Assembly (NCBI GenBank): GCA_007376405.1 | Contig: VMGD01000004.1 | Span: 8,960-72,959 of the forward strand | Reading direction: 5' to 3' | Length of the DNA stretch: 64,000 bases | Source of the DNA: Microgenomates group bacterium Gr01-1014_7 | GTDB taxonomy: Bacteria; Patescibacteriota; Microgenomatia; Daviesbacterales; UBA10151 | Shown here: positions 20,465 to 41,531 of the stretch, one piece after another | Numbering within the stretch: position 1 is the first letter of the stretch | How the letters are laid out: every line of letters begins with the position of its first letter | Translations under genes and position numbers: made by a program | The notes under the pieces: generated by a model | The model's input: the letters and a program-made list of their open reading frames with translations, nothing else | The model's database searches: none | Told to the model about the DNA's origin: nothing

Positions 20465-20483
20465 GTAATTCACGCTCTTTTTT

Positions 20484-20516
20484 GTCAGGATTTTGTAAGG
20501 AATAAATCAAGCACTT
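20484..20516 (+). repeat. conserved 33-nt intergenic motif (copy B)
   Basis: GTCAGGATTTTGTAAGGAATAAATCAAGCACTT. Like copy A, it is followed by GTTTGACTT about 100 nt downstream (20618-20626; the copy A equivalent is at 10721-10729). Confidence 0.6.
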
Positions 20517-20643
20517 AATTAGTTAATGGTTTATGGTATATCGGAAGATTGTATATCGGAAACGATAATCGATAAACGAAAAGCCGATTAGGCGTTACGA
20601 TAAACAAATAGGAAAGTGTTTGACTTAAATCTTTGGAGGTTAT

Positions 20644-23600
20644 ATGCTGAATATAGAAAGACCAATTATGGCAGAAGGAACATCAGGACCAGAGGGAGGA
20701 GCAGTATCTCCTGGAGTATCTAAACCAGCGACTGTAGAAAGTAGGATTCCAGCAAACGAAATACGTGCCAACGCTGTGCTTACTGATACAGCGCGCTTAC
20801 AAAAGGCACAAGAAGCATTACGAACTCAACTTACAAAAGAGCAGCAAGATGCACTTTTAAGCGCCCATCAGGAGGCGGTAGGTGAGCTAGGTCAGGATCC
20901 TAGCCAGGAAGCTGGTGTGGGTAATTACACTCAAACTCAGCTTCTGCGAAAAGCAAGAATCCTAAATGAAGCTGGTTTTAGTAAAGAACAGATACATACT
21001 CTTTTAGAATCAGGATTAGCTGGAGTGCTTCCTGCTGCAGAATTTACAACATTTGATCCTGATGTTTATTCAAAAGACCATCGGCTCCGAAGCATTGCAG
21101 GGGAGATAGTGAGTAGTGTTACGGCAGGGGTTGCGGATGAAGATTTATTCAAAAGAAATTTGAGTCGACTTGAAAAATTAGTGGACGGAGGATTAGTAAC
21201 TGAGCTGGCTTTAGCTGATCAGCTTCGATTAAATCTGGAATTATGGCGCTTGGAGGCAACAGGTGAAATACCTCTTCAGACAGAGGATCCGCTTCTTACC
21301 GCACGTGATTTGGAAAGAATAAGACAAGAAGCAGCTAAAGAGGGTGGTAGCCAGTTTAGTATGGCTAGGGCTAAGTATGAGCATTTTAGCAGAATTAGCA
21401 ATAGAACAAGAAATCTATCTCCTCAACTTCAGATTGAACTCCAGAAAAAAAGAAAGGATGCTAGGGAAGGTCTCGTTAGGTTTAAGGAGGAGAAGCTTGA
21501 AGATGAGCCAGCTGCCCAGCAGGTAATAGAAGGAAGAACAGTGAACGTAGTTTTAAGAGATTTTAGAGAAGCAGTATTTAAATTCTATAAAAAGTTCAAG
21601 GCAGCCAAATCAAATGAGATATATGGTGGAGATAAAGATGCCGTTTTAAGACAGGCAAGACATGGTGGAGATTTTGAGGAGACAATGTTTGATGACTCAA
21701 TCCCTCTAAAAGAATTGGAAGGAATTTATGGGGGGTTGCTCAGATATATGTATACGGGTATTGCTCAGGAGATGGATAAAGAACAACACAGAAGAGATAC
21801 AAAAGATCCTTTAAACCCGATAGCACAGCAAGAATTTGAGGCAATTAAAAAACGCAGGGCCAAAGAGAGAAGAAGAGATAGAAAATACGAGACACGCTCA
21901 ACACATTATGGAGTAATCTATGAATTTAGCGCGGAAAATGCCGGAGAACTGCCTGACGCTGTTTTGGATTATACAAAAGACCAGATTTTTGCATTGCTGA
22001 AAAATCCCCCGGAAGATATAGACAAAGAAGTACGCAAAATTGAGGAAGAATCAGGGAGATATCTTGAGCAAAACCGTATCCGTTTAATTGAAGAAGGACA
22101 AGATATACCAGAGACTCATCCGGAGTTCGTAAGAGCCAAAGCTTTGGCTAAAGCAATACCAATTGTGCTGGGGTACGAACAAATACTTTATAAAGGCGGT
22201 GAGGAATCTGCACCAGCATATAAACTAAAAGCTGCAGCTGATTCTGCCGGTATCGAAGATGCAATTTATTTGGAAAACCCCACAGCGGCTTTACAAATGC
22301 ATCTGATTTCTACCTATAAAGATGGGATATATTGGTTAGGTCAGCGCTGGGATACGGAAAAGCCTGAAAGTGAGGATTATATACCCGGAGAAGGCGCGAC
22401 AAACGACTTAAGGAAAGAGATAGCAGAGGAGATTATTGGGTATGCGGCAACTCATGAGCTGTATTTATCTGATGAAATGACTCGCGGTGTATATCTTGAT
22501 GCAAATGGTGACCCGATTTTGGGTGAGGACGGTGAGGCAATTGGAGCTTTTACTTATAGGGAAGGGAAGCATTCGGGTGGAAGGGACCTAAGATATGCCT
22601 TTGATGACAATATAGAACAGCTACTTTTAGATCCTGATGGGTCAATTTGGACAAATACAGAGAGTAGACTTAGAGAACGAGGAGAAAGCCAGGATGAGAT
22701 CAACAAAGCCCGGGAAAGACACAGTATAAGGGTGGCAGTTTTCCAAAGGATCAAGGACAGGCATGATATAAGGGAAGGACTAAGTTTTGTTACCTATCAG
22801 GAAATAGCCAATTTAAAAAGACAAAATGGTGGCCGGTTTCCAACAGAGCAACAATTAGCAGCCGTATCCAAGCTGAAAAAGGATATTATGCTAGGTCAGT
22901 TGCAGCAACAAGGACTCTCGCCCCAACAAGCTGAAGAGCGGTTACGTCAAATAATGGATGAGCACAGAAAAGAGGGAATAAGAGCAAGAATAAAAGATCA
23001 GCTGAATCAGAAGACTAATTTAAGATATAGTGCTATCGCACAATTAACCCGTATAGCCCAGCTTGATCTTGAGGATGCTGATGATAAAGAAAGTCCCAGC
23101 GGTCCGCTTCATGACAAAATTCTTTGGAAATGGGTAGAGGATTATAACGCGTATCTAATTAAGATACGTCAGTCAAAATGGCATCCAAGCGGTTGGGACA
23201 GAGTAAGAGTTGATATTGATCGGCCTACCAAAGTTTTGGACAGAGAGCTTGAGGGGGATGAGCTGATGGCCATGTTTGAACTAAATCCTCTCATACTTAA
23301 ATACCCCGGACAGCTCAGTGATGAAGAAAAAGCCGAGAAAGATTACAAACTGGATGAGGCCAGATTCGGTTTTCAACTGGCCAGAAGTTATCAGGTTTTC
23401 CATGCGGTAGATACTATAACTGGAGGTATGAGAACCAGGTTAACAGATCCGAATACAGGAAAGTATTTAGGAAAATTATTTGGCGATGATGAGGAAACTA
23501 AAAAAGTAAACAGGCGTTTGGGGTTAACAGATGCACAAGGGAATGTAATAGATCCAAATAGGAAAATAGTGCGGGTATTTGATGTGGTTCAGACCAGGCT

Positions 23601-25389
23601 CGAAATAGCTATTGAGGAAGAAGCAGCAGTAATCAACCAGGCTAAAGTAGAGAGGGCTGATGCTTTGGCTTCCGGGGATCAAGCACGTATTGTGGAGGCT
23701 AGACTAAACTTAAGAGATATTATTCTCAATTCTCAATTTGTGGCCACCCATGTATTAAAAGAATTAGGATTGGTAGACGGTAAACTGCCTGTCTGGTCAT
23801 TTAATTTTTTGGATTCAACCACCATGGACGTTTTTACCGAAGCTTTGGCAGATTATGGAGTAGAAGTTGGTGAGTTTGTCGGTGCTGATCCGGGAGCTCC
23901 TGGTGTACCTATAACTCATAATAGTAAAAAAGAGTTTTACGAGATTATGGAAAGGGGCAGAAGAGCCTTAAAAGCAGAATACGACCGGGCTGCCGTGGAG
24001 TTTATGGAAGGTAGGTTTCCAACTAAGGATGATGCGGATAGACCTGCCAGATCTCTTTATATGGCTGCAAGCGATTTCGGTATAGATGAAGACCCTGTTA
24101 CCATTAGCGAGCGAAATAGAATAGTAAATATAGGAGCGGTTCGTGGAAACAGAAGAATCACTGAAACCAGATTTGAACTTTCCACCAGCGGAGGCGTTAT
24201 AGACTATGAACTTGTCTCAACCTTTGGAGATTTAGGATTTTATCCTTTGCCTGTTTGGTGGGGGAGAAAAGATATAAGGGGAATGCATGGATATTACAAA
24301 AGAAGAGACGAGAAAGAATATCATGATCATAAGTTTGCAGATGTAATGGATCCGGTTCAGCATGCCAAAGCACAAGCTGCAGCATATGTAGCAAGAAGGG
24401 CTTTAACCGGAGGGAAGCTATCTGAGATAGCTATGGCTTCAAAAACAAGTGGAATCACCCCGGGCTTCTTGAATGAGACTTTTCTAAGATCAATTGACAT
24501 ATCGGTACTTCTACGTGATTGGGCTGACAAAAGATTGTTGGAAGGATCTAACATAGGAATGAAGGATACAGAGAAATATGCTGACTTAATGAAAAAATGG
24601 CGTTCAGGTAGTAAGCTTTCGGCTGTCGAAGAAAATGAATTGGAAAAATTGAGACAATTAACTTATCTGGATTTTGACAAAATGGACAGGGATATGCAAA
24701 AACAGCTTTATGACACAACGTATGGTGTAATGACTTACCTTCTATATTATCTCCAAGGACTAAAAGAAGTGCAGCAGAACAGAATAGGCAATGCACCCAG
24801 GAATTATGTTTATGATGTTACATTGATGTGGTATGAGCTTAGGAGAGTTCTAAGAAGCGCTAGGAACAAAGAAAAAGGGATAATTGTCAGGCATAAATTT
24901 TCTCCAGAAGCAGGAAGTGAAATAGCCTTAAGAATGGCAGAGGTAATACTTGAGGATGCAGATTATCTATATTTAAAAGGCTATGAAAGAGCAAGACTTT
25001 ATAGAGAAGGAGCACAAATATTATCCCGAGCACTAACTAAACAGGAGAAACAAAATGGGTTTGTAATACCCGAAATACCAGAAGGTGAAAGGACATGGAC
25101 AAACCAGCCTGAAAGAGTTAGAAAAGCTCTAGAAACTATCAGAAGAAGAGGGTTATTGGATTTCATGATAGAAGAGGGATATCAGCTGTATGAAACTAAT
25201 GAAACTGATCCCAGGAGACGTCTTGTTATGCTTAAAAAGGGTGAGGATGGTTATGAAGAAGGTAAGGACAAACCAAAGCCAATTGGTCCGGAAATAATCG
25301 GAATGAAAGTACCGCCTCTGGTACAGGAGCAAATGGCTAAGCAAGATGGAAATAAAAAAGTACAACAGCATTTTGTGGCTGTAGTGTAA
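20644..25389 (+). CDS. giant hypothetical protein (1581 aa), charged/helical, no TM segment seen
   Basis: Uninterrupted 4.7-kb ORF in an AT-rich genome. An RBS GGAGG lies 7 nt upstream. No recognisable catalytic motif. Confidence 0.6.
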   Translation: MLNIERPIMAEGTSGPEGGAVSPGVSKPATVESRIPANEIRANAVLTDTARLQKAQEALRTQLTKEQQDALLSAHQEAVGELGQDPSQEAGVGNYTQTQLLRKARILNEAGFSKEQIHTLLESGLAGVLPAAEFTTFDPDVYSKDHRLRSIAGEIVSSVTAGVADEDLFKRNLSRLEKLVDGGLVTELALADQLRLNLELWRLEATGEIPLQTEDPLLTARDLERIRQEAAKEGGSQFSMARAKYEHFSRISNRTRNLSPQLQIELQKKRKDAREGLVRFKEEKLEDEPAAQQVIEGRTVNVVLRDFREAVFKFYKKFKAAKSNEIYGGDKDAVLRQARHGGDFEETMFDDSIPLKELEGIYGGLLRYMYTGIAQEMDKEQHRRDTKDPLNPIAQQEFEAIKKRRAKERRRDRKYETRSTHYGVIYEFSAENAGELPDAVLDYTKDQIFALLKNPPEDIDKEVRKIEEESGRYLEQNRIRLIEEGQDIPETHPEFVRAKALAKAIPIVLGYEQILYKGGEESAPAYKLKAAADSAGIEDAIYLENPTAALQMHLISTYKDGIYWLGQRWDTEKPESEDYIPGEGATNDLRKEIAEEIIGYAATHELYLSDEMTRGVYLDANGDPILGEDGEAIGAFTYREGKHSGGRDLRYAFDDNIEQLLLDPDGSIWTNTESRLRERGESQDEINKARERHSIRVAVFQRIKDRHDIREGLSFVTYQEIANLKRQNGGRFPTEQQLAAVSKLKKDIMLGQLQQQGLSPQQAEERLRQIMDEHRKEGIRARIKDQLNQKTNLRYSAIAQLTRIAQLDLEDADDKESPSGPLHDKILWKWVEDYNAYLIKIRQSKWHPSGWDRVRVDIDRPTKVLDRELEGDELMAMFELNPLILKYPGQLSDEEKAEKDYKLDEARFGFQLARSYQVFHAVDTITGGMRTRLTDPNTGKYLGKLFGDDEETKKVNRRLGLTDAQGNVIDPNRKIVRVFDVVQTRLEIAIEEEAAVINQAKVERADALASGDQARIVEARLNLRDIILNSQFVATHVLKELGLVDGKLPVWSFNFLDSTTMDVFTEALADYGVEVGEFVGADPGAPGVPITHNSKKEFYEIMERGRRALKAEYDRAAVEFMEGRFPTKDDADRPARSLYMAASDFGIDEDPVTISERNRIVNIGAVRGNRRITETRFELSTSGGVIDYELVSTFGDLGFYPLPVWWGRKDIRGMHGYYKRRDEKEYHDHKFADVMDPVQHAKAQAAAYVARRALTGGKLSEIAMASKTSGITPGFLNETFLRSIDISVLLRDWADKRLLEGSNIGMKDTEKYADLMKKWRSGSKLSAVEENELEKLRQLTYLDFDKMDRDMQKQLYDTTYGVMTYLLYYLQGLKEVQQNRIGNAPRNYVYDVTLMWYELRRVLRSARNKEKGIIVRHKFSPEAGSEIALRMAEVILEDADYLYLKGYERARLYREGAQILSRALTKQEKQNGFVIPEIPEGERTWTNQPERVRKALETIRRRGLLDFMIEEGYQLYETNETDPRRRLVMLKKGEDGYEEGKDKPKPIGPEIIGMKVPPLVQEQMAKQDGNKKVQQHFVAVV

Positions 25390-25398: not shown

Positions 25399-27201
25399 TT
25401 ACGGCTTCTTAATTGCACTAATTAACCCTGGTCTACCGTAAAGAGGTTGCCACCCAGCGGCTTTCTTACCTGGAATGGGTTGATACTGTACTTCTCCTGT
25501 AATACTCTGTCTAATCATACCTGTTGTTCCGCTTACAGCCCCTTGAGATTGACCAGCATATCTTTGGCCTGCTCCAATACCGCCGCTAATTTCCTGTCCT
25601 AATAGTTGTCCTGCCTGGCCCATTCTCCCGATAGCGCCAACAACAACATCCGGAATTTTAGGAAGAGCCATTAATGCCCCAAAAGCTAAAAGAATATGAA
25701 TAAAACCTAAATTTAGACCCCCAAATAAGGGTAATGTAGGGCCGGTAAACTGAACCGGGCCGCCTGCTGCAGATACACTTTGTATGAAGCCACTATTTTC
25801 TATCTGATTTGAGCTAGAGATTTTTAGAGGATAATCTGTGCCGATTTTGTCTGTACCTAAAATAAAAGCTACAAAATAAAATACAGCCAAAACTGCAGGG
25901 AAGATTAAGATATTGGCCAGCATATTTAAAATCCAGCCTGTTGCAATCCCTTGTCTACCAGGTAAAGCAGCAGCCATAAATTGAAAAGGGGCGGAAATAG
26001 TCAGAAAAATAATAGTTAAAAAAGCAGAAACCAGACGAAGGAGTAATCTGATCATGGCATATATTAATGCCAAGGTGGCAATAAAACCCAGGGCAAATCC
26101 AAAGGTAAACGTTGGAGCAGTAAATCCGACGATACCTGCAGCTAGTAAAGTCAGTAGTTGAGTCAGAGGTCCTATAATGAATGCCACAGGACCAGCGCCA
26201 GCACTGATTGCAGTACCAATTCCACCAATCCCTCCTGCAATTGGACCAAAGAATTGCGCGACTAAAAATCCTGCAATGGTTCTTAGCGTCAATTGAGTAA
26301 TCCCGGGCAATTGACCTATGATTGTGTCTAAGAATCCTGACACATCGTCATGGCCTACAATGCCTGTTAATGGACCAAATATGTTTATAACATTTTTATC
26401 AGAAATATGCTGAACTAAATTGGTTCTTTGCGGATCATTTGTCTGGTCCTGGGCTGCGGCAAAGTAATACCCCACTACATTTGTTCCCACAAAGGCCATG
26501 TCGGAAATTAGGGCTGCCAGGAAGTAGGAGAAAGTAATTAAGATCAGGCCGATTACCAGGCCGGGGAGGGCTGCCTGGGCTGTTATTACTGTTTGGGGGT
26601 TAATCCGGTTTCTAAACATCACCATCATTCCTATAATTACAAAAACTACTATCATGGCCACATAGGAAATATTTCTTGATACCTGCCAGAGTTTGCTTAT
26701 GGGGTCCAGCACCTGGGCCCCCGAGCCTATTACCTGGGCATGTGCGGGTTTTACAAACCCGATTTGCTCACCCAAGTTGGCCAGATACTGGGAGGTGCTG
26801 ATAGGGGGGTTGGCATACAGGGCCCCGATTATGGAAGTTGTTGCACCTAGCGCTCCTCCGGATAAATTAACCTGGGACAGCACCGGAATGCCGCTCTGGT
26901 AGGTCAGGCAGGGCGCTCCAATCACGGATGAACCAATAGCCAGACAGGAAAAGCTGTGGAACATGTTATGGACCAGCAGGTCGGTATAGAGGGGGGAGGT
27001 AGGGGATACGGTGGCAGGCAGACTTGTGGTGAGCCCCTCGACTTCGCTCGGGGTGAACTCCGTCGAACCAGAGGTGGTTTGGGCGAAAGCGGCAGGAGTA
27101 TAGAGTATTAAGTATAGAGTATAGAGTATAAAAACAAGAACAAGCTTTAGAAAACCCTTACGTCCGAAGGACGGGCGTATTATACTTAATACTTGATACA
27201 T
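25399..27201 (-). CDS. VirB6/TrbL-like polytopic membrane protein with signal peptide
   Basis: The probable start is MYQVLSIIRPSFGRKGFLKLVLVFILYTLYLILYTPAAFA-Q, a signal peptide. This is followed by an ~150-aa ectodomain, then at least 8 hydrophobic helices with Gly-rich loops. Adjacent to the pilin-like array. Confidence 0.45.
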   Translation of the reverse strand: MYQVLSIIRPSFGRKGFLKLVLVFILYTLYLILYTPAAFAQTTSGSTEFTPSEVEGLTTSLPATVSPTSPLYTDLLVHNMFHSFSCLAIGSSVIGAPCLTYQSGIPVLSQVNLSGGALGATTSIIGALYANPPISTSQYLANLGEQIGFVKPAHAQVIGSGAQVLDPISKLWQVSRNISYVAMIVVFVIIGMMVMFRNRINPQTVITAQAALPGLVIGLILITFSYFLAALISDMAFVGTNVVGYYFAAAQDQTNDPQRTNLVQHISDKNVINIFGPLTGIVGHDDVSGFLDTIIGQLPGITQLTLRTIAGFLVAQFFGPIAGGIGGIGTAISAGAGPVAFIIGPLTQLLTLLAAGIVGFTAPTFTFGFALGFIATLALIYAMIRLLLRLVSAFLTIIFLTISAPFQFMAAALPGRQGIATGWILNMLANILIFPAVLAVFYFVAFILGTDKIGTDYPLKISSSNQIENSGFIQSVSAAGGPVQFTGPTLPLFGGLNLGFIHILLAFGALMALPKIPDVVVGAIGRMGQAGQLLGQEISGGIGAGQRYAGQSQGAVSGTTGMIRQSITGEVQYQPIPGKKAAGWQPLYGRPGLISAIKKP

Positions 27202-27239
27202 AATACTAATTAAAGCCCTTTTAATTAAAAAATGCAACC

Positions 27240-27476
27240 CTATTTTACTTTATCCAGTAATTCAAAATATCTATCTCTGGAAATTCCTGCTGTAGTTAAG
27301 TTAGTGCGAATATGTGTGACAGCAACTTGATGGGGACTGATTTTAATTACAACTGGTCGCATAATCCCTGGTTTTGTCATGGAGATATGATCCCCTTTAG
27401 TTCTGGAAACTTGGAATCCCTCATGTTCAAAAATCTGTACTAATTTCTTATAGTGGATTGGAACAATTTTTGGCAT
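27240..27476 (-). CDS. hicA: HicA-like toxin (YcfA family)
   Basis: 78 aa with a GDHISMTKPG-type motif. Immediately downstream of the HicB-like gene. Confidence 0.55.
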   Translation of the reverse strand: MPKIVPIHYKKLVQIFEHEGFQVSRTKGDHISMTKPGIMRPVVIKISPHQVAVTHIRTNLTTAGISRDRYFELLDKVK

Positions 27477-27740
27477 TTAAAATCCTAAGGCCATACGTCC
27501 TGCAACTAAAGGATCATCACTGCGCCACAATCTATTTTCAGGTTTAAATCCAGCTTCAGTTAATACATCCTCCAATGTCCCCATTCTTTTACATTCCTCC
27601 AAGAAAAGCTCAACAGCCTCTTTTAAAGAAACCTTGGCCTCTTTTTTTGTGCTACCGAAACTGGAAACATTTAGCTCGGGGGCAACAGCCACATATTGAC
27701 CATCTTCTTTAAATATTTCAATCCGAAAATTAAGTTGCAT
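27477..27740 (-). CDS. hicB: HicB-like antitoxin (UPF0150)
   Basis: ..FKEDGQYVAVAPELNVSSFGSTKKEAKVSLKEAVELFLE.. matches the HicB N-domain. Confidence 0.55.
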   Translation of the reverse strand: MQLNFRIEIFKEDGQYVAVAPELNVSSFGSTKKEAKVSLKEAVELFLEECKRMGTLEDVLTEAGFKPENRLWRSDDPLVAGRMALGF

Positions 27741-28178
27741 AATAATTTTAGTTTATCTTTTCTGTTTGAAAATTGCAACATTCATTCTGTTACTTTTTCA
27801 TCTCATGAATATGGGATTGAAGATGTGACAGGAAACATGTTACCGAGTTACTTTTCATTCACTCATCCCCCTCAATAAAGAAGGTCTCTTTCCTTAAGCT
27901 AGGCTGTTACCTGTGTAGTCGCTTCCATAAGCCTTTCGAGCCCATGCTAACAGCTATTCTTGAATATATGCATATGTTCGCAAGCGAATAGTAGTCGTCC
28001 CACAATTAAATATTATATCACGATATTTTCCCGCTTCCTCATAAATTTGCTACCATTGACCGGAATAACTATTTTGATCAAATTCAGAAAGCGCTGGGAA
28101 AATAACACGCTTGTCTTTTTCGTCTCATTATGATACGATTAAATTAGACTAATAATTAGACTAATTTTAGACTGATTT

Positions 28179-29366
28179 ATGAATATAACAACAATCAAGC
28201 CGTTTACTACACCCTTTCTTTCCCGGTTTGTATTTACGCCCAAGCTGATCCCCTTTAGCGACAGGGAAATTACTAAAATAGATACAGAGCTTAAAGATTA
28301 TGAGCAGGTATTTTTAAACCCTGATATTGAGAGGAATTTAATCAGTAGAAATGAACTGCTTGCTTCTTTTGCCATCTCCAAAGCCGAGGATTCTACTTTA
28401 ACCCTGCAGGAAGCGCAGGATGTTTATAAGCTTGTCCTGGCTAATGAAGACTTTACAGAAAAGAAATTAACGCGTAAAGATCATGATAAACTGGAATTTT
28501 TCAATATTGCCAGAACATTCAAAAGCTTAAACCAAGAAAAGATCAGGATTAATGATCTGACCCCGGGGTTTTTACAGGAAGTGCATTTTAATTTAAGTCA
28601 GGGGTTGGATATATTTGGAAAATATTTGCCGGATTTTAATATATACAAAGCAGGTAAGTGGCGGGATAGTGATTCCATCAGGGTTGGCACATATATCCCT
28701 GCCCCTTATGAAAGTATAAAGCAGGGTGTGGAGGAGTTAATCAAATGGCTAAAAGAAAACAGGACTATAACGGGGGTTGCAATATTTCATACTGCCCTTT
28801 ATGCGCTGCACCCTTTCACTAATGGCAACAAAAGAGTTTGCCGGGTGCTAGAGCATTTATTTTTCCGTGACCTGGGGCTTAATAAAAAAAATCTCTACAG
28901 CACTTCGTATTATTATCACAAGCAAAAGGCCCGTTATTATAAATATCTGCTTTTTTCTTTGGAAAGGCAAAACTTAAATCACTTTACCGGTTTTATTCAA
29001 GAAGCATTGGTGTTATCGATGATTGATGTGGTGAAATTAAGTTTGGAAGCAAAACGTCAGGATTTTCTGAACCGGCAGGATATTGAAGGACCAGTGAAAT
29101 CAGTCCTTAAGCCTCTAATAAAAAGATCAGAAATCCAATTTAAAAACCTTTTTAAATATTCAAGGGGGAAAATTGCCAGGCAGACTTTTGTTAATTATTT
29201 ACAGAAGGCAGTTGAGGAGAAAATTTTGTTAAAACGGGAGAAGGGTAAAGCCACCTATTACAGCTTCAATGTTAAGCCTCAACCCGAGGAAGCGACACTT
29301 AAAAAATGGCTTGATTTTGCCAAAGAGAGGTTACCTTACATACCGGATGACATTAAACTAAGGTAA
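28179..29366 (+). CDS. Fic/Doc-family protein with Doc-like catalytic motif
   Basis: HPFTNGNKRVCR matches the Fic core HxFx(D/N)(G/A)N(G/K)R. The N-G-N-K-R variant is the Doc (kinase-type) form rather than the AMPylating GNGR form. Confidence 0.75.
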   Translation: MNITTIKPFTTPFLSRFVFTPKLIPFSDREITKIDTELKDYEQVFLNPDIERNLISRNELLASFAISKAEDSTLTLQEAQDVYKLVLANEDFTEKKLTRKDHDKLEFFNIARTFKSLNQEKIRINDLTPGFLQEVHFNLSQGLDIFGKYLPDFNIYKAGKWRDSDSIRVGTYIPAPYESIKQGVEELIKWLKENRTITGVAIFHTALYALHPFTNGNKRVCRVLEHLFFRDLGLNKKNLYSTSYYYHKQKARYYKYLLFSLERQNLNHFTGFIQEALVLSMIDVVKLSLEAKRQDFLNRQDIEGPVKSVLKPLIKRSEIQFKNLFKYSRGKIARQTFVNYLQKAVEEKILLKREKGKATYYSFNVKPQPEEATLKKWLDFAKERLPYIPDDIKLR

Positions 29367-29954
29367 GGCATTCCGGATATTAAATGTGGTGACATTTACC
29401 CCTGTAAAAGCTTCAATTAAGTTTAATACCAGCCAGGCAATGGCTAGAAAAAGTATTCCCAGCAGGGCCCAGGAGAAAGTGTGGTGGGCCGCCTGAACTG
29501 CTTTTGGTTCACCCCCTGATGTTAAATACTTAAATCCTGCCCAGATAAGCATTATTAGTGAGGCTATGAATGCCAAGCCCACAACCACATTAACAACATT
29601 TTTAAAAACATCCTCAATCTCTTTTAACCCCGCAGCATCATTGACAGTAGTGCCCGCAGGAGTAGCACCGGGTACACATCTGGTCATGTTTGGTGATGGA
29701 ATACCGGTTACCAGTTCATCATTTTCGACTTCGCAATGTGTGCCTGTTGGGCAGTTTTGAAGATGTTCATGTGTACAATCGCCTAAGTTACGATACCTTT
29801 GTATGCCTCCTGCACAATACTGGTCCAGCTGTCCAGAGTAGGGAGCTCTTTGTTCTTCTTCTTGGGGTGTGCAATGGCCGGCATAAACAGGAGAAGGGTA
29901 AAGTGTAAAGGGTAAAGTGAAAAGCAGGATTAGAAGTATTAGTTTTAAATACAT
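29358..29954 (-). CDS. VirB2/TrbC-like T4SS pilin-module protein with Cys-rich N-terminal ectodomain
   Basis: Signal peptide, then 8 Cys (GHCTPQ..YCAGG..GDCTHEHLQNCPTGTHCEV..RCVPG). Conserved C-terminal module LIWAGFKYLTSGGEPKAVQAAHHTFSWALLGILFLAIAWL. Confidence 0.55.
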   Translation of the reverse strand: MYLKLILLILLFTLPFTLYPSPVYAGHCTPQEEEQRAPYSGQLDQYCAGGIQRYRNLGDCTHEHLQNCPTGTHCEVENDELVTGIPSPNMTRCVPGATPAGTTVNDAAGLKEIEDVFKNVVNVVVGLAFIASLIMLIWAGFKYLTSGGEPKAVQAAHHTFSWALLGILFLAIAWLVLNLIEAFTGVNVTTFNIRNALP

Positions 29955-29995
29955 GATACTTAATACATAATACTTAATACTCTTGTTGGGGTCAA

Positions 29996-30451
29996 TTATC
30001 GTGGTGGTGTGGGTATGACGAAGTTTGCAACGTTAAAGCCCAGGAATGATCCTGCTACCTGGAATAGGGCAAAAGCAACCGACAGTATGCCCAAACCCAC
30101 TAAAGCATTAATGATTCTGCCTCTTGCTTTTCCAACAGCTTCTTTATCACCGCCCGAGAAAATCCATTCAAATGCTCCCCAGATAAGCATGAGTAAGACT
30201 ACTACTACAGCCAGTATTAAAAGTAAAGTTAATGTGTTTTGAATAAAATCTCCCAGATTGGCAAAACCAATTGGCTGGTTGTTCTCTCTTGTGGGTCTTT
30301 GGATTTGAATACTTGAATTATCTACATGACCTGGTACATGATTTGCAAATGCGGTAGTGGCACTATAAAAAGAAGTTAGTACTGAGCTTCCAAGAAGAAT
30401 TAATTTTCTCATTACTATATTATAGTATTCATAAATTAAATTGTTTGTCAA
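29996..30451 (-). CDS. VirB2/TrbC-like T4SS pilin-module protein
   Basis: C-terminal module LIWGAFEWIFSGGDKEAVGKARGRIINALVGLGILSVAFA with two hydrophobic helices. Confidence 0.55.
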   Translation of the reverse strand: MTNNLIYEYYNIVMRKLILLGSSVLTSFYSATTAFANHVPGHVDNSSIQIQRPTRENNQPIGFANLGDFIQNTLTLLLILAVVVVLLMLIWGAFEWIFSGGDKEAVGKARGRIINALVGLGILSVAFALFQVAGSFLGFNVANFVIPTPPR

Positions 30452-30466
30452 GCCAGCAGTTTGGCT

Positions 30467-30823
30467 TCACCTTTGACCTGCAAAGAAAGTAAATCCGGTA
30501 AATGTTCCCAAAATTTGAATAATTGCAAATGCCACTGCAAAAAGCATAATGCCAACAAAAGCATTGATCAGTCTGCTTTTGGCATGTTCCAGCTTTTCCT
30601 TATCCCCTCCGGATGTCAGCCAGTCAAAAGCTCCCCAAAGTATCATAAAGATTAAAACAATAGTTGCTACTGAGTAAATCAGAGTAACCAGATTGCTTAA
30701 AACCATGCTGATGGCAGAAGCGCCGCTGGCATCGGTTTCAATAAACCTTCTGAAAACATGCGGTACTCCTATTGTGCCGAATGCAGCTTCAATTTCATGG
30801 TTTGATGCCAAAAGTGTTGACAT
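30467..30823 (-). CDS. VirB2/TrbC-like T4SS pilin-module protein
   Basis: ILWGAFDWLTSGGDKEKLEHAKSRLINAFVGIMLFAVAFA. Confidence 0.55.
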   Translation of the reverse strand: MSTLLASNHEIEAAFGTIGVPHVFRRFIETDASGASAISMVLSNLVTLIYSVATIVLIFMILWGAFDWLTSGGDKEKLEHAKSRLINAFVGIMLFAVAFAIIQILGTFTGFTFFAGQR

Positions 30824-30826
30824 AAT

Positions 30827-31162
30827 TTAATTCCCTCTAAATATATTAAATCCTCCTCTATATCTATTAAATTCAAACAATCCCCCCACTAAAAACTGCA
30901 AAATCAAAAATGCGAACATCAGTATTATAAACCCTACTATGGCATGAGAAATCATCTGTTTTGCCGCAGATACTTCTTCTTTATTTTCTCCTGCCTGAAG
31001 ATACTTAAAAGCTCCCCAGAGAAAGTATAGTATCACCAAAAAAGCAGCAATGGAGAATCCCGGCTCAACCAGTTGGGTTATAGCTGATCCCAAATTCTCA
31101 AACCGTCCTCCCGCAAATCCAAATTCATTGCCTATATTTACTGCAGCATAAGCAGTTTTCAA
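30827..31162 (-). CDS. VirB2/TrbC-like T4SS pilin-module protein
   Basis: FLWGAFKYLQAGENKEEVSAAKQMISHAIVGFIILMFAFL. Confidence 0.55.
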   Translation of the reverse strand: MKTAYAAVNIGNEFGFAGGRFENLGSAITQLVEPGFSIAAFLVILYFLWGAFKYLQAGENKEEVSAAKQMISHAIVGFIILMFAFLILQFLVGGLFEFNRYRGGFNIFRGN

Positions 31163-31494
31163 AATGGTACTCCTCCTTTTGTTGGCGGAAATATTTCACC
31201 TGCAAATGTTGTTATAAAAAAGGCCAGTAAAATAACTACCAGGCCAATTAAAGCATAAGCAATCCGGGCCCGGGCTTTTGCCAGATTTTCTTTATTCCCC
31301 TGGGCCATAATGTAGGCAAATGCCCCCCAGACTAAATATATAAAAGCCAAAAAGGCTGCAATATAGAAGGCAATGGTTAGAAGGGGGGAAATAATGGAGC
31401 CCAGATTGGTAAACTCACCTTTTAGGCTGTCCGGTCCTGTAATGGTATTTCCTCCTGGCAATTTTAAAGCTAATTTCATAGATTTAAGATTCAC
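31159..31494 (-). CDS. VirB2/TrbC-like T4SS pilin-module protein
   Basis: LVWGAFAYIMAQGNKENLAKARARIAYALIGLVVILLAFF. The annotated GTG start lies inside direct repeat R1; the true start may be the internal MKLALKLPGG. Confidence 0.5.
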   Translation of the reverse strand: MNLKSMKLALKLPGGNTITGPDSLKGEFTNLGSIISPLLTIAFYIAAFLAFIYLVWGAFAYIMAQGNKENLAKARARIAYALIGLVVILLAFFITTFAGEIFPPTKGGVPF

Positions 31495-31513
31495 GATTTA
31501 TGATTTACGAATG
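31478..31513. repeat. direct repeat R1 flanking the four-helix-bundle gene
   Basis: ATAGATTTAAGATTCACGATTTA[TGATTTA]CGAAT. It pairs with R2 at 31882-31910. Confidence 0.6.
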
Positions 31514-31898
31514 TTTTTGTGCTTCTGATAAATCCCTGCAAAATTTGATGAGCTAGATTTGCCTGATCTGCTAAAGAATTAAAATCCTTAACATCAAGAT
31601 ATCCTACATCTTTTGCAATAAGTATAAAGTTTTTTAATTCAGTTAATGATCCTTGGGATAAGTAATAGAATTGCAATTTTTCCTTATAAGAATGTCTACC
31701 AAATCCTTCAGCAATATTAGCCGTCACAGATGATGCTGCTCTTCTCATCTGGTCGACCAAAGAATAAGTTTCCTCTTTAGGAAATGTTTTGGTTATTTTG
31801 TAAACCATAACTACTAGAATATGCCCTTCCTGCCAAACTTTCAAATCCGTAAATGTCTGTATCTTTCCATTCTTCATAAAAATAGATTTAAGATTCAT
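31491..31898 (-). CDS. four-helix-bundle protein (23S rRNA intervening-sequence protein family)
   Basis: ..DLKVWQEGH..VYKITKTFPKEETYSLVDQMRRAASSVTANIAEGFGRHSYKEKLQFYYLSQGSLTELKNFILIAKDVGYL.. is the canonical pattern for this family. Confidence 0.7.
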   Translation of the reverse strand: MNLKSIFMKNGKIQTFTDLKVWQEGHILVVMVYKITKTFPKEETYSLVDQMRRAASSVTANIAEGFGRHSYKEKLQFYYLSQGSLTELKNFILIAKDVGYLDVKDFNSLADQANLAHQILQGFIRSTKTFVNHKS

Positions 31899-31910
31899 GA
31901 TTTACGAATT
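31882..31910. repeat. direct repeat R2 flanking the four-helix-bundle gene
   Basis: ATAGATTTAAGATTCATGATTTACGAAT. It contains the gene's ATG start. Confidence 0.6.
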
Positions 31911-31947
31911 ATTCTTAAATCTCTATTCTTAAATCTTAAATCACTCT

Positions 31948-33432
31948 TTACCGGGCGAAGCCTGGTAACCTTAAGATATCAAATCCAATGATTTGCATCA
32001 GCAGAACGGCAAAAATAACCATTAGTAGTCCTATTATTGCATTGGTAAACCTGTCTTTTCCTGTTGCCAAAGTTTCCGGATTTCCTGCAGAAGTTAACAT
32101 CTGGAATGCTCCCAAAAGCATCATCAAAAATGCAAACCCTCCCCCAATGGCAATGATAAATGTCAAAAAGTCTTTGGTAAATCCCACTGGATCAGTATGC
32201 ACGCACCCAATGGCTGTTTTAAATCCTTTCCCCCCGTCACAGGGAATCCCCCCCGCCGCAGCCGGACTCCCGGCAGGAGCACCCCGTCCTCCTGGGCCGG
32301 TGGAAGGACTAGGCGCTGGAGAAACAACAGTATCAGGAGGGGAGGCTGTACAACTTCCAGGTTGGCTGGGATCATTACTTATGGTAAACCCTCCTTGAGC
32401 TATTACATTACCCGAATTGCATGCGGTTGAACTTTCCATTACGCTCATTGTATGAGGCCCCGTATCATAAGTTCCTAAATTAAATTCAATGTTTCCACCT
32501 GACGATGCATTGCATGTTGTTCCACTGGTGGGGTTACGGCCGTCTACAGAAACTTTATATATGCCATCTGGTACCCCGGGAATTGTGATTTGAACATTAT
32601 CACCAGAGGTAAACCGGGGATTGGTACAGGTAATTGAACTCGTTAGTACGGAACTGACGACAAAGGAAGCAGTTGCTAGATCAATCTCTTGCCCGGCTCT
32701 TTCTCCTGTTATCTTGATATTATAATTTCCGGCCTGGAAGCTCTGGCAAGTGCTTGCCGGTGTACGATGGTAAACATAAATATCCCCTATAGAACATATA
32801 GCCATTGATAAATTACCGCTTGTGTCAGGGTTAATAGTTCCTGAAATTTGTTGCCATTGCCCGCTATCTTTTTGAATATAATATCTGTATGTCATATTGC
32901 TGCGCAGATTGCTCAAAATGGCTTGAATATTTGTAGCACTGATTGTTAATGTGGTAGTTGAGAGAGAAAGCCTTACTCCGGAGATAACTGTAAAAGGACC
33001 ACTTGTTATGACTGGGTTAGGGTTAGGTTCGCTCACGGAAGCTAGTCTTATTGTTACTGTATAATTTGTTAAATCAAAAAATCTGCATGCACTACTTGCA
33101 TCTGCATAGACAATTCTTCCTGGATTGAAAACTGGACAGAATTCGAAAGAGAGACTGGTGCCTGTAGGTTGACGGTACGCATGGGTGATCCGATCCATTG
33201 CAGTACCGCCTCGATAGATAGGTATTTCTGTTGATTCATTACCCTTTTTTACATAAAGAATGTAACCTTGTCCTCCTCTTAAATTACTAACGGTAATGTG
33301 GGCATTATCTTGGACAGATACAGGGTTAGGTGATACTGATACTGATATTGATTGGGCTTGAACTATGGAAACATTCTGAAAACAGAGAAGTAAAAGGGAT
33401 ATAAGTATTCTTATAAAAACAATTTTCCCCAT
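31948..33432 (-). CDS. large secreted protein: beta-rich Ser/Thr-rich ectodomain fused to a C-terminal VirB2/TrbC-like pilin module
   Basis: Signal peptide, then ~400 aa rich in T/S/N/G with Ig-like segments, then a Gly/Pro linker. The C-terminus carries MLLGAFQMLTSAGNPETLATGKDRFTNAIIGLLMVIFAVL, the module shared with the five small paralogs. Confidence 0.55.
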   Translation of the reverse strand: MGKIVFIRILISLLLLCFQNVSIVQAQSISVSVSPNPVSVQDNAHITVSNLRGGQGYILYVKKGNESTEIPIYRGGTAMDRITHAYRQPTGTSLSFEFCPVFNPGRIVYADASSACRFFDLTNYTVTIRLASVSEPNPNPVITSGPFTVISGVRLSLSTTTLTISATNIQAILSNLRSNMTYRYYIQKDSGQWQQISGTINPDTSGNLSMAICSIGDIYVYHRTPASTCQSFQAGNYNIKITGERAGQEIDLATASFVVSSVLTSSITCTNPRFTSGDNVQITIPGVPDGIYKVSVDGRNPTSGTTCNASSGGNIEFNLGTYDTGPHTMSVMESSTACNSGNVIAQGGFTISNDPSQPGSCTASPPDTVVSPAPSPSTGPGGRGAPAGSPAAAGGIPCDGGKGFKTAIGCVHTDPVGFTKDFLTFIIAIGGGFAFLMMLLGAFQMLTSAGNPETLATGKDRFTNAIIGLLMVIFAVLLMQIIGFDILRLPGFAR

Positions 33433-33507: not shown

Positions 33508-33816
33508 ATGCCCATAATTAAGGGAAGGAAGGTTGTTGAGTTTGATTGGGATGAGGCAAACATTGCCCATATAGCAAAGCATAATGTATTGCCGGAAGAG
33601 GCAGAAGAGGTATTTTTTGATGAAAATAATGTGCAGGATGAGGATGTAGCACATTCAACAGCTGAAAAGCGTCTTTTAATAATTGGACAAACAGGAAAGG
33701 GAAGATTACTTTATCAAATATTTACCATAAGAGGAAAGAAAATCAGAGTTATTTCCTCTCGCGATATTAACAAAAAGGAGGTCCGGTTATATGAAAAAAA
33801 AATTAGTCGTTCCTAA
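33508..33816 (+). CDS. brnT: BrnT-family toxin (DUF497 ribonuclease)
   Basis: ..VVEFDWDEANIAHIAKHNVLPEEAEEVFFDE.. Confidence 0.7.
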   Translation: MPIIKGRKVVEFDWDEANIAHIAKHNVLPEEAEEVFFDENNVQDEDVAHSTAEKRLLIIGQTGKGRLLYQIFTIRGKKIRVISSRDINKKEVRLYEKKISRS

Positions 33817-34054
33817 ATTCAAAAGTGAAGCAGAAGAGGCCGAGTTTTGGGCCAAACTTAACTTAATGGAATATTTTGAACCTTCTGATTTTAAAAGAGG
33901 AATAATATTCCCTAATTTAAAACGCAGCAAGCGCCTCATTTCTATTAGACTCCCTGAAGAACTGATTGGTAAGGTAAAGAAAAAGGCATCTAATCTGGAT
34001 ATACCATACCAAAGCCTGATCCGTCAGTATATTCAGCAGGGAGTAGCCCAATAA
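33791..34054 (+). CDS. brnA: BrnA-family antitoxin
   Basis: ..EAEEAEFWAK..ISIRLPEELIGKVKKKASNLDIPYQSLIRQYI.. Overlaps brnT by 26 nt. Confidence 0.65.
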   Translation: MKKKLVVPKFKSEAEEAEFWAKLNLMEYFEPSDFKRGIIFPNLKRSKRLISIRLPEELIGKVKKKASNLDIPYQSLIRQYIQQGVAQ

Positions 34055-34221: not shown

Positions 34222-35937
34222 ATGAAAAAAATATTGTTTTTTATATTGTTTTTGTATCTTACCCTATACCCTATACCCTATACCCTATACCCTGTTTCTG
34301 CTGATGAAATAGAGGATTTGCAAAAGCAGATTGATGAGCTAAACCGTGCCCGGGAGCTTTCCGTCAAAGCAACCAAACCTTTGGAAGGCCAATTTGATTC
34401 CTTAAAACGCCAGCTTGCACAAATTCAGGCCAATTTGGATAATCTATCTGCCAATATTGGTAAAAAACAAAAAGAGCTAGATATAAGAGAAGATAAGATT
34501 GCCCTGCAGCAGGCTTTACTGGAAAAAAGAGTAAAAGCTTACTACATCCGGTCATACCTGGCAGATCCACTTTTGGTTATTCTTTCCTCAATTCACTCGG
34601 GGGATTTATTCAGAGAGCTTGCCCTTCGTCAATCCGTGGCAAGAGAAGACCGGAAAATAATTACTTCTATAACGGCAGAAGTGGTTGATTTACTCACTCA
34701 AAAAACCAAGCTGGAAAAAGACAAAGCTAAGCTCGCGATCTTTCAAGAAGAAGTGGATAAAAATGCCAAATTTTTGGGAGGGGAAATTAAAAAAGCCAAA
34801 GATTATCAAACCCAACTTAGTAGTCAAATTGCTCAGCTTTCTGCCAGACAGCAGCAAATTATTGCCCAAAGGCAAGCCAGTTTGAATTTGCCCACTTCTT
34901 TGGGAGCAGGGCCGCTTTTTTGCACAGATGATAGAAAATTAGACCCGGGTTTTAGGCCTGGCTTTGCCTTTTTTACTTTTGGTATTCCGCACCGTGTGGG
35001 CATGAACCAGTATGGAGCTTATGGCAGGTCACAGGCAGGGCAAAGTCATGAGGATATATTGCGGGCCTATTTTCAGGATTTTTCTTTTGAACAGCGGCCA
35101 AATATTAATATTTCCGTGCAGGGTTATGGTTCAATGCCGCTGGAAACTTATCTTTTGGGAATTTATGAAATGCCTGATTCCTGGCCGCCGGAGGCCTTAA
35201 AAGCACAAGCCATATCTGCCCGCTCTTATGCTCTTGCCTTTACTAATAATGGGGCCGGTGAAATTTGCACCAGCCAACTTTGTCAAGTCTATAAAGGAGG
35301 TAATAAAGGCGGCAATTGGGAGCAGGCAATTAGGGCAACTGAGGGGAAAGTAATGGTTTCGGGAGGGGTGGTTGTTAAAGCCTGGTATTCTTCAACCGAC
35401 GGAGGCTATACTTTCACATCAGGAGATGTTTTTGGCGGCAACCGCTCCTTTACTAAAAGATTGCGGGATACTAATGGGGACATAGGTAATTTTTCTGACC
35501 TGTTCTCCAAAGCTTATGACAGGGATTCTCCCTGTTTTTATGCGGCCCAGGGGTTTAGGGCTGAATTTGCCAAATCAGCCTGGTTAAAATCGGAAGAGGT
35601 GGCAGACATTGCCAATGTGATTATGCTTTCCAAGAAAGACTCGGGAGTGGCGTCCCATATTTACCAGACAGACAAACCCAATCCTGAAGGAGGGGAGACA
35701 TGGGATAAAGATAAAGTTAAACAGGAGTTGCGAGGCAGAGGAGGGAGCCCTTTCAGCAGTGTTTCTTCGGTTTCTGTGTCCGGCGATTTTTCCTCAGGTA
35801 TGGTTTCGTCGGTGACAGTTTCAGGAGACAAGGGTTCGGAAACATTCAATGCCGGCGAATTTAAAAACTTTTTTAATATTCGTGCCCCGGCCAATATACA
35901 AATTGTCGGACCGCTTTTTAATGTTGAGCAAAAGTAG
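34222..35937 (+). CDS. SpoIID/LytB-domain cell-wall lytic protein with N-terminal signal peptide and long coiled coil
   Basis: ..PHRVGMNQYGAYGRSQAGQSHEDILRAYF.. and ..EALKAQAISARSYALAF.. match the SpoIID/LytB domain. The N-terminal ~200 aa are a heptad-rich coiled coil. Confidence 0.7.
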   Translation: MKKILFFILFLYLTLYPIPYTLYPVSADEIEDLQKQIDELNRARELSVKATKPLEGQFDSLKRQLAQIQANLDNLSANIGKKQKELDIREDKIALQQALLEKRVKAYYIRSYLADPLLVILSSIHSGDLFRELALRQSVAREDRKIITSITAEVVDLLTQKTKLEKDKAKLAIFQEEVDKNAKFLGGEIKKAKDYQTQLSSQIAQLSARQQQIIAQRQASLNLPTSLGAGPLFCTDDRKLDPGFRPGFAFFTFGIPHRVGMNQYGAYGRSQAGQSHEDILRAYFQDFSFEQRPNINISVQGYGSMPLETYLLGIYEMPDSWPPEALKAQAISARSYALAFTNNGAGEICTSQLCQVYKGGNKGGNWEQAIRATEGKVMVSGGVVVKAWYSSTDGGYTFTSGDVFGGNRSFTKRLRDTNGDIGNFSDLFSKAYDRDSPCFYAAQGFRAEFAKSAWLKSEEVADIANVIMLSKKDSGVASHIYQTDKPNPEGGETWDKDKVKQELRGRGGSPFSSVSSVSVSGDFSSGMVSSVTVSGDKGSETFNAGEFKNFFNIRAPANIQIVGPLFNVEQK

Positions 35938-41505: not shown

Positions 41506-41531
41506 CACTTCGACGCGCTCAGTGCAAGCCA

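Follow-up and report, generated by a model that had tools for sequence, protein, structure and literature searches.

In the 64,000-nucleotide (nt) stretch of Microgenomates group bacterium Gr01-1014_7 analysed here (contig VMGD01000004.1, positions 8,960 to 72,959), hereafter referred to as the window, six minus-strand genes at 29358-33432 encode paralogous proteins that all carry the PF18895 T4SS_pilin domain. With high confidence, the region is considered to specify the extracytoplasmic and membrane part of a Patescibacteria type IV secretion system (T4SS). There is similarly high confidence that the six PF18895 paralogs were ancestrally co-transcribed with a VirB6-like gene and belong with a VirB3/PrgI-TrsD-VirB4 cluster. 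The overall explanation favoured here, and regarded as reasonably probable, is that the array constitutes a fixed T4SS set of six pilins, each being a distinct subunit, with the first member in the order of transcription (position 1) serving as an adhesin subunit.

According to the map of open reading frames (ORFs), the six genes encode proteins of 494, 111, 111, 118, 151 and 198 amino acids (aa) in transcription order, arranged as follows:

31948-33432, minus strand: position-1 long pilin, 494 aa; PF18895 39.9 bits over aa 418-481
31159-31494, minus strand: position-2 pilin, 111 aa, with a short N-terminal tail and no signal peptide; PF18895 41.3 bits, NF045849 E 2.6e-9, positional orthologs in 38 of 40 loci
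30827-31162, minus strand: position-3 pilin, 111 aa; PF18895 38.1 bits, NF045849 E 3e-7, assigned also by positional orthology
30467-30823, minus strand: position-4 pilin, 118 aa; PF18895 41.0 bits, NF045849 E 6.5e-6
29996-30451, minus strand: position-5 pilin, 151 aa; PF18895 34.4 bits, NF045849 E 1.4e-5
29358-29954, minus strand: position-6 pilin, 198 aa; PF18895 38.1 bits, TrbC 26.7 bits against a cutoff of 27.9

All six proteins exceed the Pfam gathering cutoff for PF18895 (34.4-41.3 bits against 26.6 bits, E 1.6e-10 to 2.3e-8), and judging by these scores the sharing of the module is far beyond chance. The module corresponds to the C-terminal 70-90 aa, where alignment and hydropathy have revealed two hydrophobic helices flanking a polar, K/R-containing loop, with ..LWGAF.Y[IL].SGG.KE...A[KR].RI..A.IG as the consensus of the six sequences. 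The original prediction, which had been made from the DNA letters and translations, described six minus-strand genes with a common two-helix C-terminal module, a description borne out by the alignment, the hydropathy and the PF18895 matches. [quoted passage not shown] Some of its details needed revision. The motif quoted at that time agrees with the consensus but occurs verbatim in no member and in a relaxed form in three of the six. The six genes are not strictly consecutive, as members 1 and 2 are separated by an Avd-like gene (31491-31898). The supposed 8-Cys domain belongs to the 198-aa protein, which has six cysteines (residues 28, 47, 60, 68, 74 and 93). Furthermore, a large ectodomain is found on the 494-aa member alone rather than on several, with the N-terminal extensions of the 198-aa and 151-aa members reaching only about 80 aa and 40 aa, respectively.

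Simple hydropathy assigns two transmembrane (TM) segments to each pilin, with 2-4 Lys/Arg residues in the intervening loop. Sec-type signal peptides begin the 494-aa and 198-aa members and, when read from an internal Met, the 151-aa member, whose true start is likely to be this internal Met at nt 30412, giving a signal peptide ending in ...TAFA. In the position-6 protein, the signal peptide is followed by the 6-Cys extension and then by the pilin module. The combination of signal peptides with a two-helix module and a basic loop implies an N-out/C-out arrangement, as expected of an unassembled pilin. Each member is taken to be a helical hairpin with both termini outside and the basic loop in the cytoplasm, and this topology forms part of the best explanation for the locus. 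Pilin arrays in Patescibacteria have been defined as at least two pilin-family genes, in tandem or one non-pilin gene apart, with approximately 25% identity (PMC12102498). The present locus comprises six pilin genes with one intervening Avd-like gene and a pairwise identity of 19-28% between the paralogs.

The conservation of the array has been assessed in 80 related loci, mostly from Daviesbacteria (designated by L numbers below), which were retrieved by scanning one-genome-per-species contigs with the long-pilin alignment. ORFs were called in these loci, a hidden Markov model (HMM) built from the six pilin modules was iterated once, and neighbouring genes were mapped by phmmer. Pilin copy number was determined in the 46 loci holding both SpoIID and the VirB6-like gene, positional orthology in the six-gene subset of these (n=40), and SpoIID identity was used as the yardstick for genome relatedness between loci. 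The locus is strongly syntenic: p620, DUF5657, bPH and SpoIID (divergent) come first, then the long pilin ahead of the five shorter ones, and finally the VirB6-like gene, behind which a convergent giant ORF is often found; SpoIID is located upstream of position 1 in most loci. Although the array ranges from 2 to 13 pilin genes across the 80 loci, exactly six are present in 40 of the 46 bounded by SpoIID and the VirB6-like gene. In BLASTP comparisons, the best hit in another locus occupies the same array position for 225 of 240 modules, with mean scores of 93-116 bits for the same position against 34-78 bits for different positions, and the between-species median identity by position amounts to 0.46-0.60 compared with 0.55 for SpoIID. 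This fixed order, together with orthology at each position, indicates old paralogs, each under purifying selection. It is the signature of six ancient paralogs acting as non-interchangeable parts of a multi-subunit assembly. N-terminal extensions follow position as well: they exceed 150 aa at position 1 in 36 of the 40 loci and 60 aa at position 4 in 17, being rare elsewhere. The Cys-rich position-6 extension occurs only in the window and L026 among these loci, and in a few lineages position 1 is short (135-175 aa).

At position 1, a conserved pilin module is joined to an ectodomain that differs between genomes. The 494-aa protein can be divided as follows:

33355-33432, minus strand: signal peptide (aa 1-26)
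32347-33354, minus strand: tandem beta-sandwich ectodomain (aa 27 to about 362), from the AlphaFold2 (AF2) model
32245-32346, minus strand: Gly/Pro/Ser/Ala linker (aa about 363-396)
31951-32244, minus strand: Cys398-Cys410 hairpin (TAIGC motif) and two-helix pilin module (aa 397-494)

In the AF2 model (pLDDT 76.5), a signal helix is followed by strands through residue 362, which form three beta-sandwich regions, with low confidence for the first. Residues 371-392 of the linker are disordered and lead to a small hairpin with the invariant Cys398 and Cys410, and then to helices at 415-447 and 452-486. The Foldseek matches of the ectodomain comprise tandem arrays of fibronectin type III (FN3) and immunoglobulin-like (Ig) domains as well as a Haloferax S-layer protein (E ~1e-7 to 1e-6, given as 2e-7 for the best hits). 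Ten Cys occur in the mature protein and fall in pairs inside the domains of the model, as would suit a protein outside the cytoplasm. The ectodomain predicted for this gene at ~400 aa, here about 340 aa, and the Gly/Pro linker are both present in the model. Among the 120 database homologs listed for the protein (287-571 aa), every one has [TS]A[IVL]GC followed by a C-terminal module of 87-96 aa, and PF18895 was found in all 120 by precomputed Pfam assignment and in the 50 that were rescanned. The median pairwise identity in this set is 75% for the C-terminal module and 23% for the N-terminal part. Known adhesin domains were sought with Pfam in the 50 rescanned homologs, where PF18895 was the only match apart from one marginal T9SS_plug_1st hit in one protein; one further homolog has precomputed Big_1/MG4 hits. 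When 1.84 billion cluster representatives were scanned by HMMER with the C-terminal module of 100 aa, E<=1e-3 was reached by 8841 of them and E<=1e-30 by 191, and the module stood at the extreme C-terminus in 150 of the 150 top representatives. According to a structure-clustering preprint, PF18895 dominates freshwater-specific structure clusters, which fits the fusion of many different domains to this module.

Across the related loci, the position-1 module is the most conserved part of the locus (median identity 0.60 over the HMM envelope and 0.75 from TAIGC on), whereas the identity of the ectodomains (0.23) equals that of a shuffled control (0.22). BLAST detects similarity in 39 of 595 ectodomain pairs, with the 35 ectodomains falling into 15 clusters; the differences between ectodomains extend along their entire length and to domain number. 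The correlation of similarity with SpoIID-based relatedness was determined for each of the two parts, with a Spearman coefficient of -0.04 (p 0.33) for the ectodomain and 0.34 (p 6e-18) for the module. Unrelated ectodomains can occur at 86% SpoIID identity, and a shared one can occur between more distant genomes. Such independence from genome relatedness argues for replacement and not merely for fast divergence, and indicates that the position-1 ectodomain has probably been exchanged in a cassette-like manner. The ectodomain swapping between related genomes for which the original prediction had suggested looking is therefore clearly seen. A tblastn search for silent cassettes with the 494-aa ectodomain, covering the window and the 80 loci, returned only the gene itself and partial matches in L002 and L003. 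Taken together, the Ig-like ectodomain of position 1 is a good candidate for host recognition.

The array is associated with the following genes:

34222-35937, plus strand: SpoIID-domain gene, conserved divergent boundary of the locus; PF08486 69 bits
25399-27237, minus strand: VirB6-like polytopic membrane protein, 612-aa ORF (annotated as 600 aa from nt 27201)
20644-25389, plus strand: giant ORF of 1581 aa, highly charged and without a TM segment, convergent with the VirB6-like gene
7190-8260, minus strand: PrgI/VirB3-like gene; PF12666 32.5 bits
6384-7112, minus strand: TrsD-like gene; NF041427 E 6.5e-8
4525-6291, minus strand: VirB4 ATPase; NF045971 (CD1110 family) 383.9 bits, cutoff 325

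In relatives, position 6 directly abuts the VirB6-like gene, which in turn precedes PrgI-TrsD-VirB4, and in at least 13 of them this trio lies a few kb downstream on the same strand. In the window, the trio (4525-8260) is located approximately 17 kb from the array and the VirB6-like gene. It had been anticipated that the pilin reading would fail if the paralogs were absent where the same VirB4 occurs; instead, they are retained beside the VirB6-like, VirB3/PrgI, TrsD and VirB4 genes. The array was also said to follow the VirB6-like gene, an order which has to be reversed, as the array comes first when the genes are read along the direction of transcription.

In the 612-aa protein, a signal/anchor segment and an extracytoplasmic region, which measures about 130 aa and includes two conserved Cys, are followed by 7-8 predicted TM segments. 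No match was found for it in Pfam, NCBIfam, PADLOC or PDB sequences, save for a weak TcpE hit (E 0.0045); in Pfam and NCBIfam this includes the VirB6, TrbL, PrgH and TcpH profiles, and 120 homologs likewise lack any precomputed Pfam domain. The structural model is helical and polytopic (pLDDT 70.8), and chains of the R388 TrwI/VirB6 protein account for nine of the top 30 Foldseek matches in the PDB, among them the best (E 0.16, probability 0.77-0.80, none significant). A polytopic protein is present where the original prediction placed a VirB6/TrbL-like gene, the designation 'VirB6-like' referring only to topology, synteny and a moderate fold match. On these same grounds, and with moderate evidence, the protein is a reasonable candidate for the VirB6 that has been reported as scarce in Microgenomatia (PMC12102498). 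It was also observed that residues ~150-270, which include the first two TM helices, match the pilin-module HMM (E ~1e-9 in a small local database) and, weakly, Pfam TcpE; this could reflect either a built-in pilin-like hairpin or only a bias in TM composition.

As regards mechanism, the family membership, the topology features, the six-fold positional orthology, the mosaic conservation and the T4SS synteny are observed, and they form the basis on which polymerisation, a location at the tip and host binding are proposed. The six pilins would be distinct subunits with fixed roles, comparable to major and minor pilins or to pseudopilins, and not interchangeable antigenic variants. The VirB4 motor would extract them from the membrane at the VirB6-like platform, and they would then build a heteromeric short pilus or stalk. 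Position 1, with three Ig/FN3-like domains on a flexible Gly/Pro linker, would act as the adhesin subunit and take over the part played by the VirB5 tip protein of diderm pili, a role suggested by its being the first gene, by its module being the most conserved and by its flexible tether to Ig-like domains. The part attaching to the surface of the host cell would be its ectodomain, which would be replaced by recombination and might therefore track host range rather than genome phylogeny. A bolder form of the proposal, in which six non-redundant pilins make a conjugative-type heteromeric filament, unknown in monoderms, and, in Daviesbacteria and related Microgenomatia, the swapped position-1 ectodomain sets the host to which the epibiont attaches and on which it feeds, is put forward tentatively and is considered rather doubtful. 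With respect to the surface display and host-attachment role originally envisaged, the signal peptide and the ectodomain are in place, and display on a pilus is proposed rather than observed.

Several observations weigh against a pilus made of VirB2-like subunits. The gathering cutoff of the TrbC/VirB2 family (PF04956, 27.9 bits) is not reached by any member, the scores being 26.7 (198-aa member), 20.6 and 17.0 bits. Hits at E<=0.01 are limited to three of the six, the other three giving no hit. In a profile-profile comparison by hhalign, a 30-sequence module profile and eight VirB2/TrbC proteins, a narrow set of plasmid and alphaproteobacterial origin that limits the power of the comparison, gave a probability of 2.2%, and an hmmsearch with the module profile found no solved conjugative pilin in the PDB at E<=5 and no pilin of any kind at E<=10. 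No T4SS pilus has been observed in Patescibacteria according to published accounts (including PMC10633639), and reviews treat the formation of one as no more than possible. The helical hairpin is a simple fold and could equally be a membrane anchor, the Gly/Pro linker resembles those of wall-spanning, membrane-anchored surface proteins, and the short position 1 of a few lineages implies that the ectodomain is dispensable for core function. Finally, inserted genes separate the array from the VirB6-like gene in this genome, so that co-expression is not guaranteed; a promoter and terminator scan of 25-34.3 kb gave counts equal to the shuffled expectation and was uninformative.

Kinship to other pilin families can be described more positively. 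NF045849 is matched by all six members (36.6, 30.0, 26.2, 25.7, 24.6 and 16.8 bits, E 2.6e-9 to 4e-3), with alignments spanning ~65-72 of 80 model positions. All of these scores lie under the equivalog cutoff of 40 bits, which indicates a related family and not membership. The VirB4 and TrsD-like proteins of the window also match the Mbov_0397 model. For the pilins of the saccharibacterium Southlakia, published Foldseek searches have reported TrbC/VirB2 and DUF4134 proteins at a TM-score of ~0.75 (PMC10633639). Of the designation 'VirB2/TrbC-like pilin' given by the original prediction, the assignment to the PF18895 family holds, but homology to canonical VirB2/TrbC was not recovered by the TrbC, hhalign and PDB searches. 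The genes belong to PF18895 and to the Patescibacteria pilin arrays, for which a VirB2-like mode of working is plausible but unproven.

Among the alternatives, the one that survives best, although it is judged unlikely, is a membrane-anchored complex that forms no filament. In this case, the six hairpins would remain in the cytoplasmic membrane and surround the VirB6-like protein as a ring or platform, comparable to the small two-TM T4SS proteins VirB3, PrgI and TcpE, and the module of the long member would merely anchor a wall-spanning adhesin at the surface. Such an arrangement would agree with the description of monoderm MPF-FATA (mating pair formation) systems, the type to which this VirB4 belongs, as pilus-less (PMC12102498), as well as with the missing observation of a Patescibacteria pilus, the lack of demonstrable homology to solved pilins and the tether-like linker. 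The weak TcpE hit and the pilin-module-like hairpin of the VirB6-like protein itself also favour it, and six distinct conserved subunits suit a complex of fixed stoichiometry as well as they do a filament. Nonetheless, the nearest relatives of the family are consistently of pilin types, namely TrbC (below threshold) and the Mycoplasma NF045849 family. The Southlakia pilins match TrbC/VirB2 structurally, as noted above, and VirB3/PrgI is already present as a separate gene.

Considerably less probable is tandem amplification for antigenic or host-range variation, in which the six genes would be interchangeable variants of one major pilin. The 19-28% identity between paralogs, also typical of other reported arrays (PMC12102498), and the variable array size in the examined loci are compatible with this idea. 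However, six copies are the rule where both boundary genes are present, and positions that are 46-60% identical across species with SpoIID 55% identical speak of old duplications under purifying selection. Moreover, the variability is found in one N-terminal ectodomain and not in the pilin modules. Positional orthology thus argues against recent amplification and largely excludes antigenic variation by this route in the clade. An unrelated small-membrane-protein family (holin, bacteriocin/immunity or toxin-antitoxin-linked) in a defence or mobile island, as might be suggested by the HicAB, BrnT/BrnA, SoFic-type Fic and Avd-like genes of the locus, is highly improbable and was excluded, given that those genes are sporadic and missing from most related loci, that the Pfam, NCBIfam and PADLOC hits include no holin or bacteriocin family, and that the array is syntenic with the VirB6-like, VirB3, TrsD and VirB4 genes.

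The fixed six-pilin set has its closest published counterparts in other Patescibacteria. In Southlakia, a predicted pilin series has been described within an essential T4SS cluster (Wang et al., 2023; PMC10633639). In the supplement to that study, six PF18895 proteins (SEML1_0014-0019) come after a VirB6/TrbL-like gene, and every one of them is essential for epibiotic growth by transposon sequencing (Tn-seq), a requirement known only for Southlakia. A subsequent survey counted 441 arrays, each with 2-11 VirB2-like genes, in 383 assemblies, above all from Microgenomatia and Saccharimonadia, with paralogs ~25% identical and sometimes one non-pilin gene between them, for which a variation strategy like that of Bartonella and Anaplasma was suggested (Quinonero-Coronel et al., 2025; PMC12102498). 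The present locus shares with these arrays PF18895, tandem low-identity paralogs, a VirB6-like neighbour, an MPF-FATA-type VirB4, TrsD and PrgI/VirB3, a location near dnaN and the lack of a relaxase nearby, and six pilins are found in both Southlakia and this clade. It differs from Southlakia in that the array lies upstream of the VirB6-like gene and not downstream, and in the Ig-like ectodomain (~340 aa) of its first member, as against whole pilins of ~125-190 aa in Southlakia. In comparison with published arrays, the VirB6-like protein is ~600 aa long and gives no VirB6/TrbL profile hit. The array as such is already published; a term search of the array publications (including PMC10633639 and PMC12102498) found no mention of ectodomain fusion, ectodomain hypervariability or orthology by array position. 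A fixed six-paralog set with a hypervariable, adhesin-type ectodomain on the most conserved paralog has apparently not been described so far.

More distant systems resemble the array in part. Canonical VirB2/TrbC/TraA pilins (PF04956) are also small helical hairpins with the termini outside and the loop inside, some with a leader or signal peptide, and are encoded with VirB3, VirB4 and VirB6; the sub-threshold TrbC hits span both helices. They differ in showing no significant profile-profile or PDB sequence similarity to the present proteins, in having one major pilin where six obligatory paralogs are found here, and in the monoderm host and the lack of a VirB5 tip protein and of VirB7/9/10 in the present system. 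A large N-terminal ectodomain is, to our knowledge, not found in canonical pilins. In the integrative and conjugative elements (ICEs) of Mycoplasma, the Mbov_0395 protein (NF045849) is encoded beside the Mbov_0396 TM protein and the Mbov_0397 VirB4, and all six modules align over nearly all of its 80-position model. Both systems are of the wall-poor/monoderm MPF-FATA type, but those of Mycoplasma are conjugative elements, whereas the present one is a chromosomal six-gene set without a relaxase and with a best score of 36.6 against the cutoff of 40 bits. The resemblance of all six modules to this Mycoplasma family suggests that pilins of this kind could be an original component of wall-less or monoderm MPF-FATA systems and not an acquisition from diderms. 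The T4SSs of Rickettsiales and Bartonella share tandem VirB2 paralogs, an extended or duplicated VirB6, host-dependent bacteria and a proposed role in host interaction (cited in PMC12102498). Unlike the present system, they are of the diderm MPF-T type with paralogs thought to be antigenic, in contrast to fixed positional orthologs with the variation in a fused ectodomain. A functional analogy only is offered by the minor pilins or pseudopilins of type IV pili and the type II secretion system (T2SS), such as GspG-H-I-J-K, and by the VirB5 tip adhesin: several conserved, non-interchangeable paralogs of one small pilin fold in fixed order, one of them adhesive. Fold and assembly machinery are unrelated to those of the array, and the analogy, which is one we infer, implies no homology.

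The locus touches on the open questions of what the essential Patescibacteria T4SS does, whether it forms a pilus and how episymbionts acquire host specificity. A fixed six-subunit set predicts a defined heteromeric structure. The sole hypervariable element of this otherwise conserved locus is the Ig-like ectodomain on the most conserved pilin, which would provide a concrete candidate for host recognition and a marker for host-range studies in metagenomes. In addition, the 600-aa neighbour offers a candidate for the VirB6 scarce in Microgenomatia.

Further genes are found within the array and at its borders:

31491-31898, minus strand: Avd-like four-helix-bundle gene (23S rRNA intervening sequence (IVS) protein family), 135 aa; PF05635 124.8 bits, TIGR02436 115 bits
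27240-29366, no strand assigned: lineage-specific insertion from the last pilin to the VirB6-like gene, separating the array from the 612-aa gene and not belonging to the secretion machinery
28179-29366, plus strand: SoFic-type Fic; PF02661, PADLOC SoFic 2.2e-29
27477-27740, minus strand: HicB-like gene, inserted as a pair with HicA
27240-27476, minus strand: HicA; PF07927

The Avd-like gene sits inside the operon but does not encode a pilin. Its stop and the start of the position-2 pilin share 4 nt, an overlap found in six loci, one of them the window. Of 27 Avd-like ORFs identified in 1.38 Mb of loci, 19 lie within 300 nt of a long-pilin gene, against a chance expectation of ~2-3 by our own rough estimate. 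Avd-like genes immediately beside the long pilin occur in the window and in L002, L004, L006, L007, L015, L017, L027, L030, L034, L037, L058, L063 and L079, and fall into at least four subfamilies only 25-40% identical to each other. The copy in the window is 90% identical to that of L017, compared with 73% for SpoIID. One possibility is that the unrelated Avd-like genes flanking position 1 take part in, or mark, the exchange of cassettes. A diversity-generating retroelement (DGR) beside a hypervariable gene was considered and rejected. The Avd-like gene scores 23.7 bits against the DGR-Avd equivalog cutoff of 80; no ORF with a reverse transcriptase (RT) motif was found in the window or the 80 loci, no template/variable (TR/VR) repeats were detected, and no repeats touch the 25-34 kb region.

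The original prediction had drawn attention to a Fic/Doc gene near the array. Its location is correct, but it is no meaningful T4SS neighbour: at the position seen in the window, the gene is absent from all related loci but one, and in L017 a Fic gene lies inside the array. The possibility of a T4SS effector was rejected, the gene being a SoFic-type insertion. HicA is located just upstream of the VirB6-like gene also in L008 and L010. A BrnT/CopG-antitoxin pair (33508-34054, plus strand) lies between the long pilin and SpoIID, and a BrnT homolog is likewise found ahead of the long pilin in six further loci (L003, L008, L010, L016, L049 and L059), on its upstream side. Considering that HicA and BrnT recur there, small selfish or accessory genes seem to accumulate preferentially at the borders of the array.

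Between the PrgI-TrsD-VirB4 trio and the VirB6-like gene lie the giant ORF and ~12 kb of plus-strand metabolic genes (8300-20640). The 1581-aa ORF has no Pfam, NCBIfam, PADLOC or PDB-sequence match. Its homologs (1204-1675 aa) are found between the VirB6-like gene and PrgI-TrsD-VirB4 in at least 10 loci, and it may represent an unrecognised T4SS component or substrate. The metabolic block contains an amidohydrolase, three PEP-utilizer mobile-domain paralogs, PPDK_N, a short-chain dehydrogenase/reductase (SDR) and a PIN gene, and ~9.8 kb of it is flanked by a 41-nt direct repeat, 88% identical (10666-10706 and 20481-20521). A cobalamin riboswitch (8317-8470, plus strand, 58.5 bits) precedes a 405-aa ORF (8503-9720) with no Pfam hit, which adjoins the PrgI/VirB3-like gene and is divergent from it. 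The minus-strand genes at 2046-4509, downstream of VirB4, might code for additional surface proteins associated with the T4SS: they comprise a 520-aa protein, for which no family hit and no homolog in the 80 loci were found, an ORF of 151 aa, and a protein of 148 aa in which a Big_5 domain of the bacterial Ig-like type is present.

Elsewhere in the window, the segment at 41419-45972 holds two tRNA-Ser genes and, after them, genes for a large serine recombinase of 1133 aa (Recombinase and Zn ribbon domains) and a Bro-N protein; it may be an element integrated at a tRNA gene. Two inverted-repeat pairs, one of 53 nt and 94% identity (53622-53674 and 62403-62455) and the other of 47 nt and 85% identity (53748-53794 and 63654-63700), bracket ~8.7-9.9 kb containing tRNAs, a GH65 phosphorylase and an ABC transporter. 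Right after the tRNA cluster, a perfect 38-nt tandem repeat is present in at least three copies (54632-54759).

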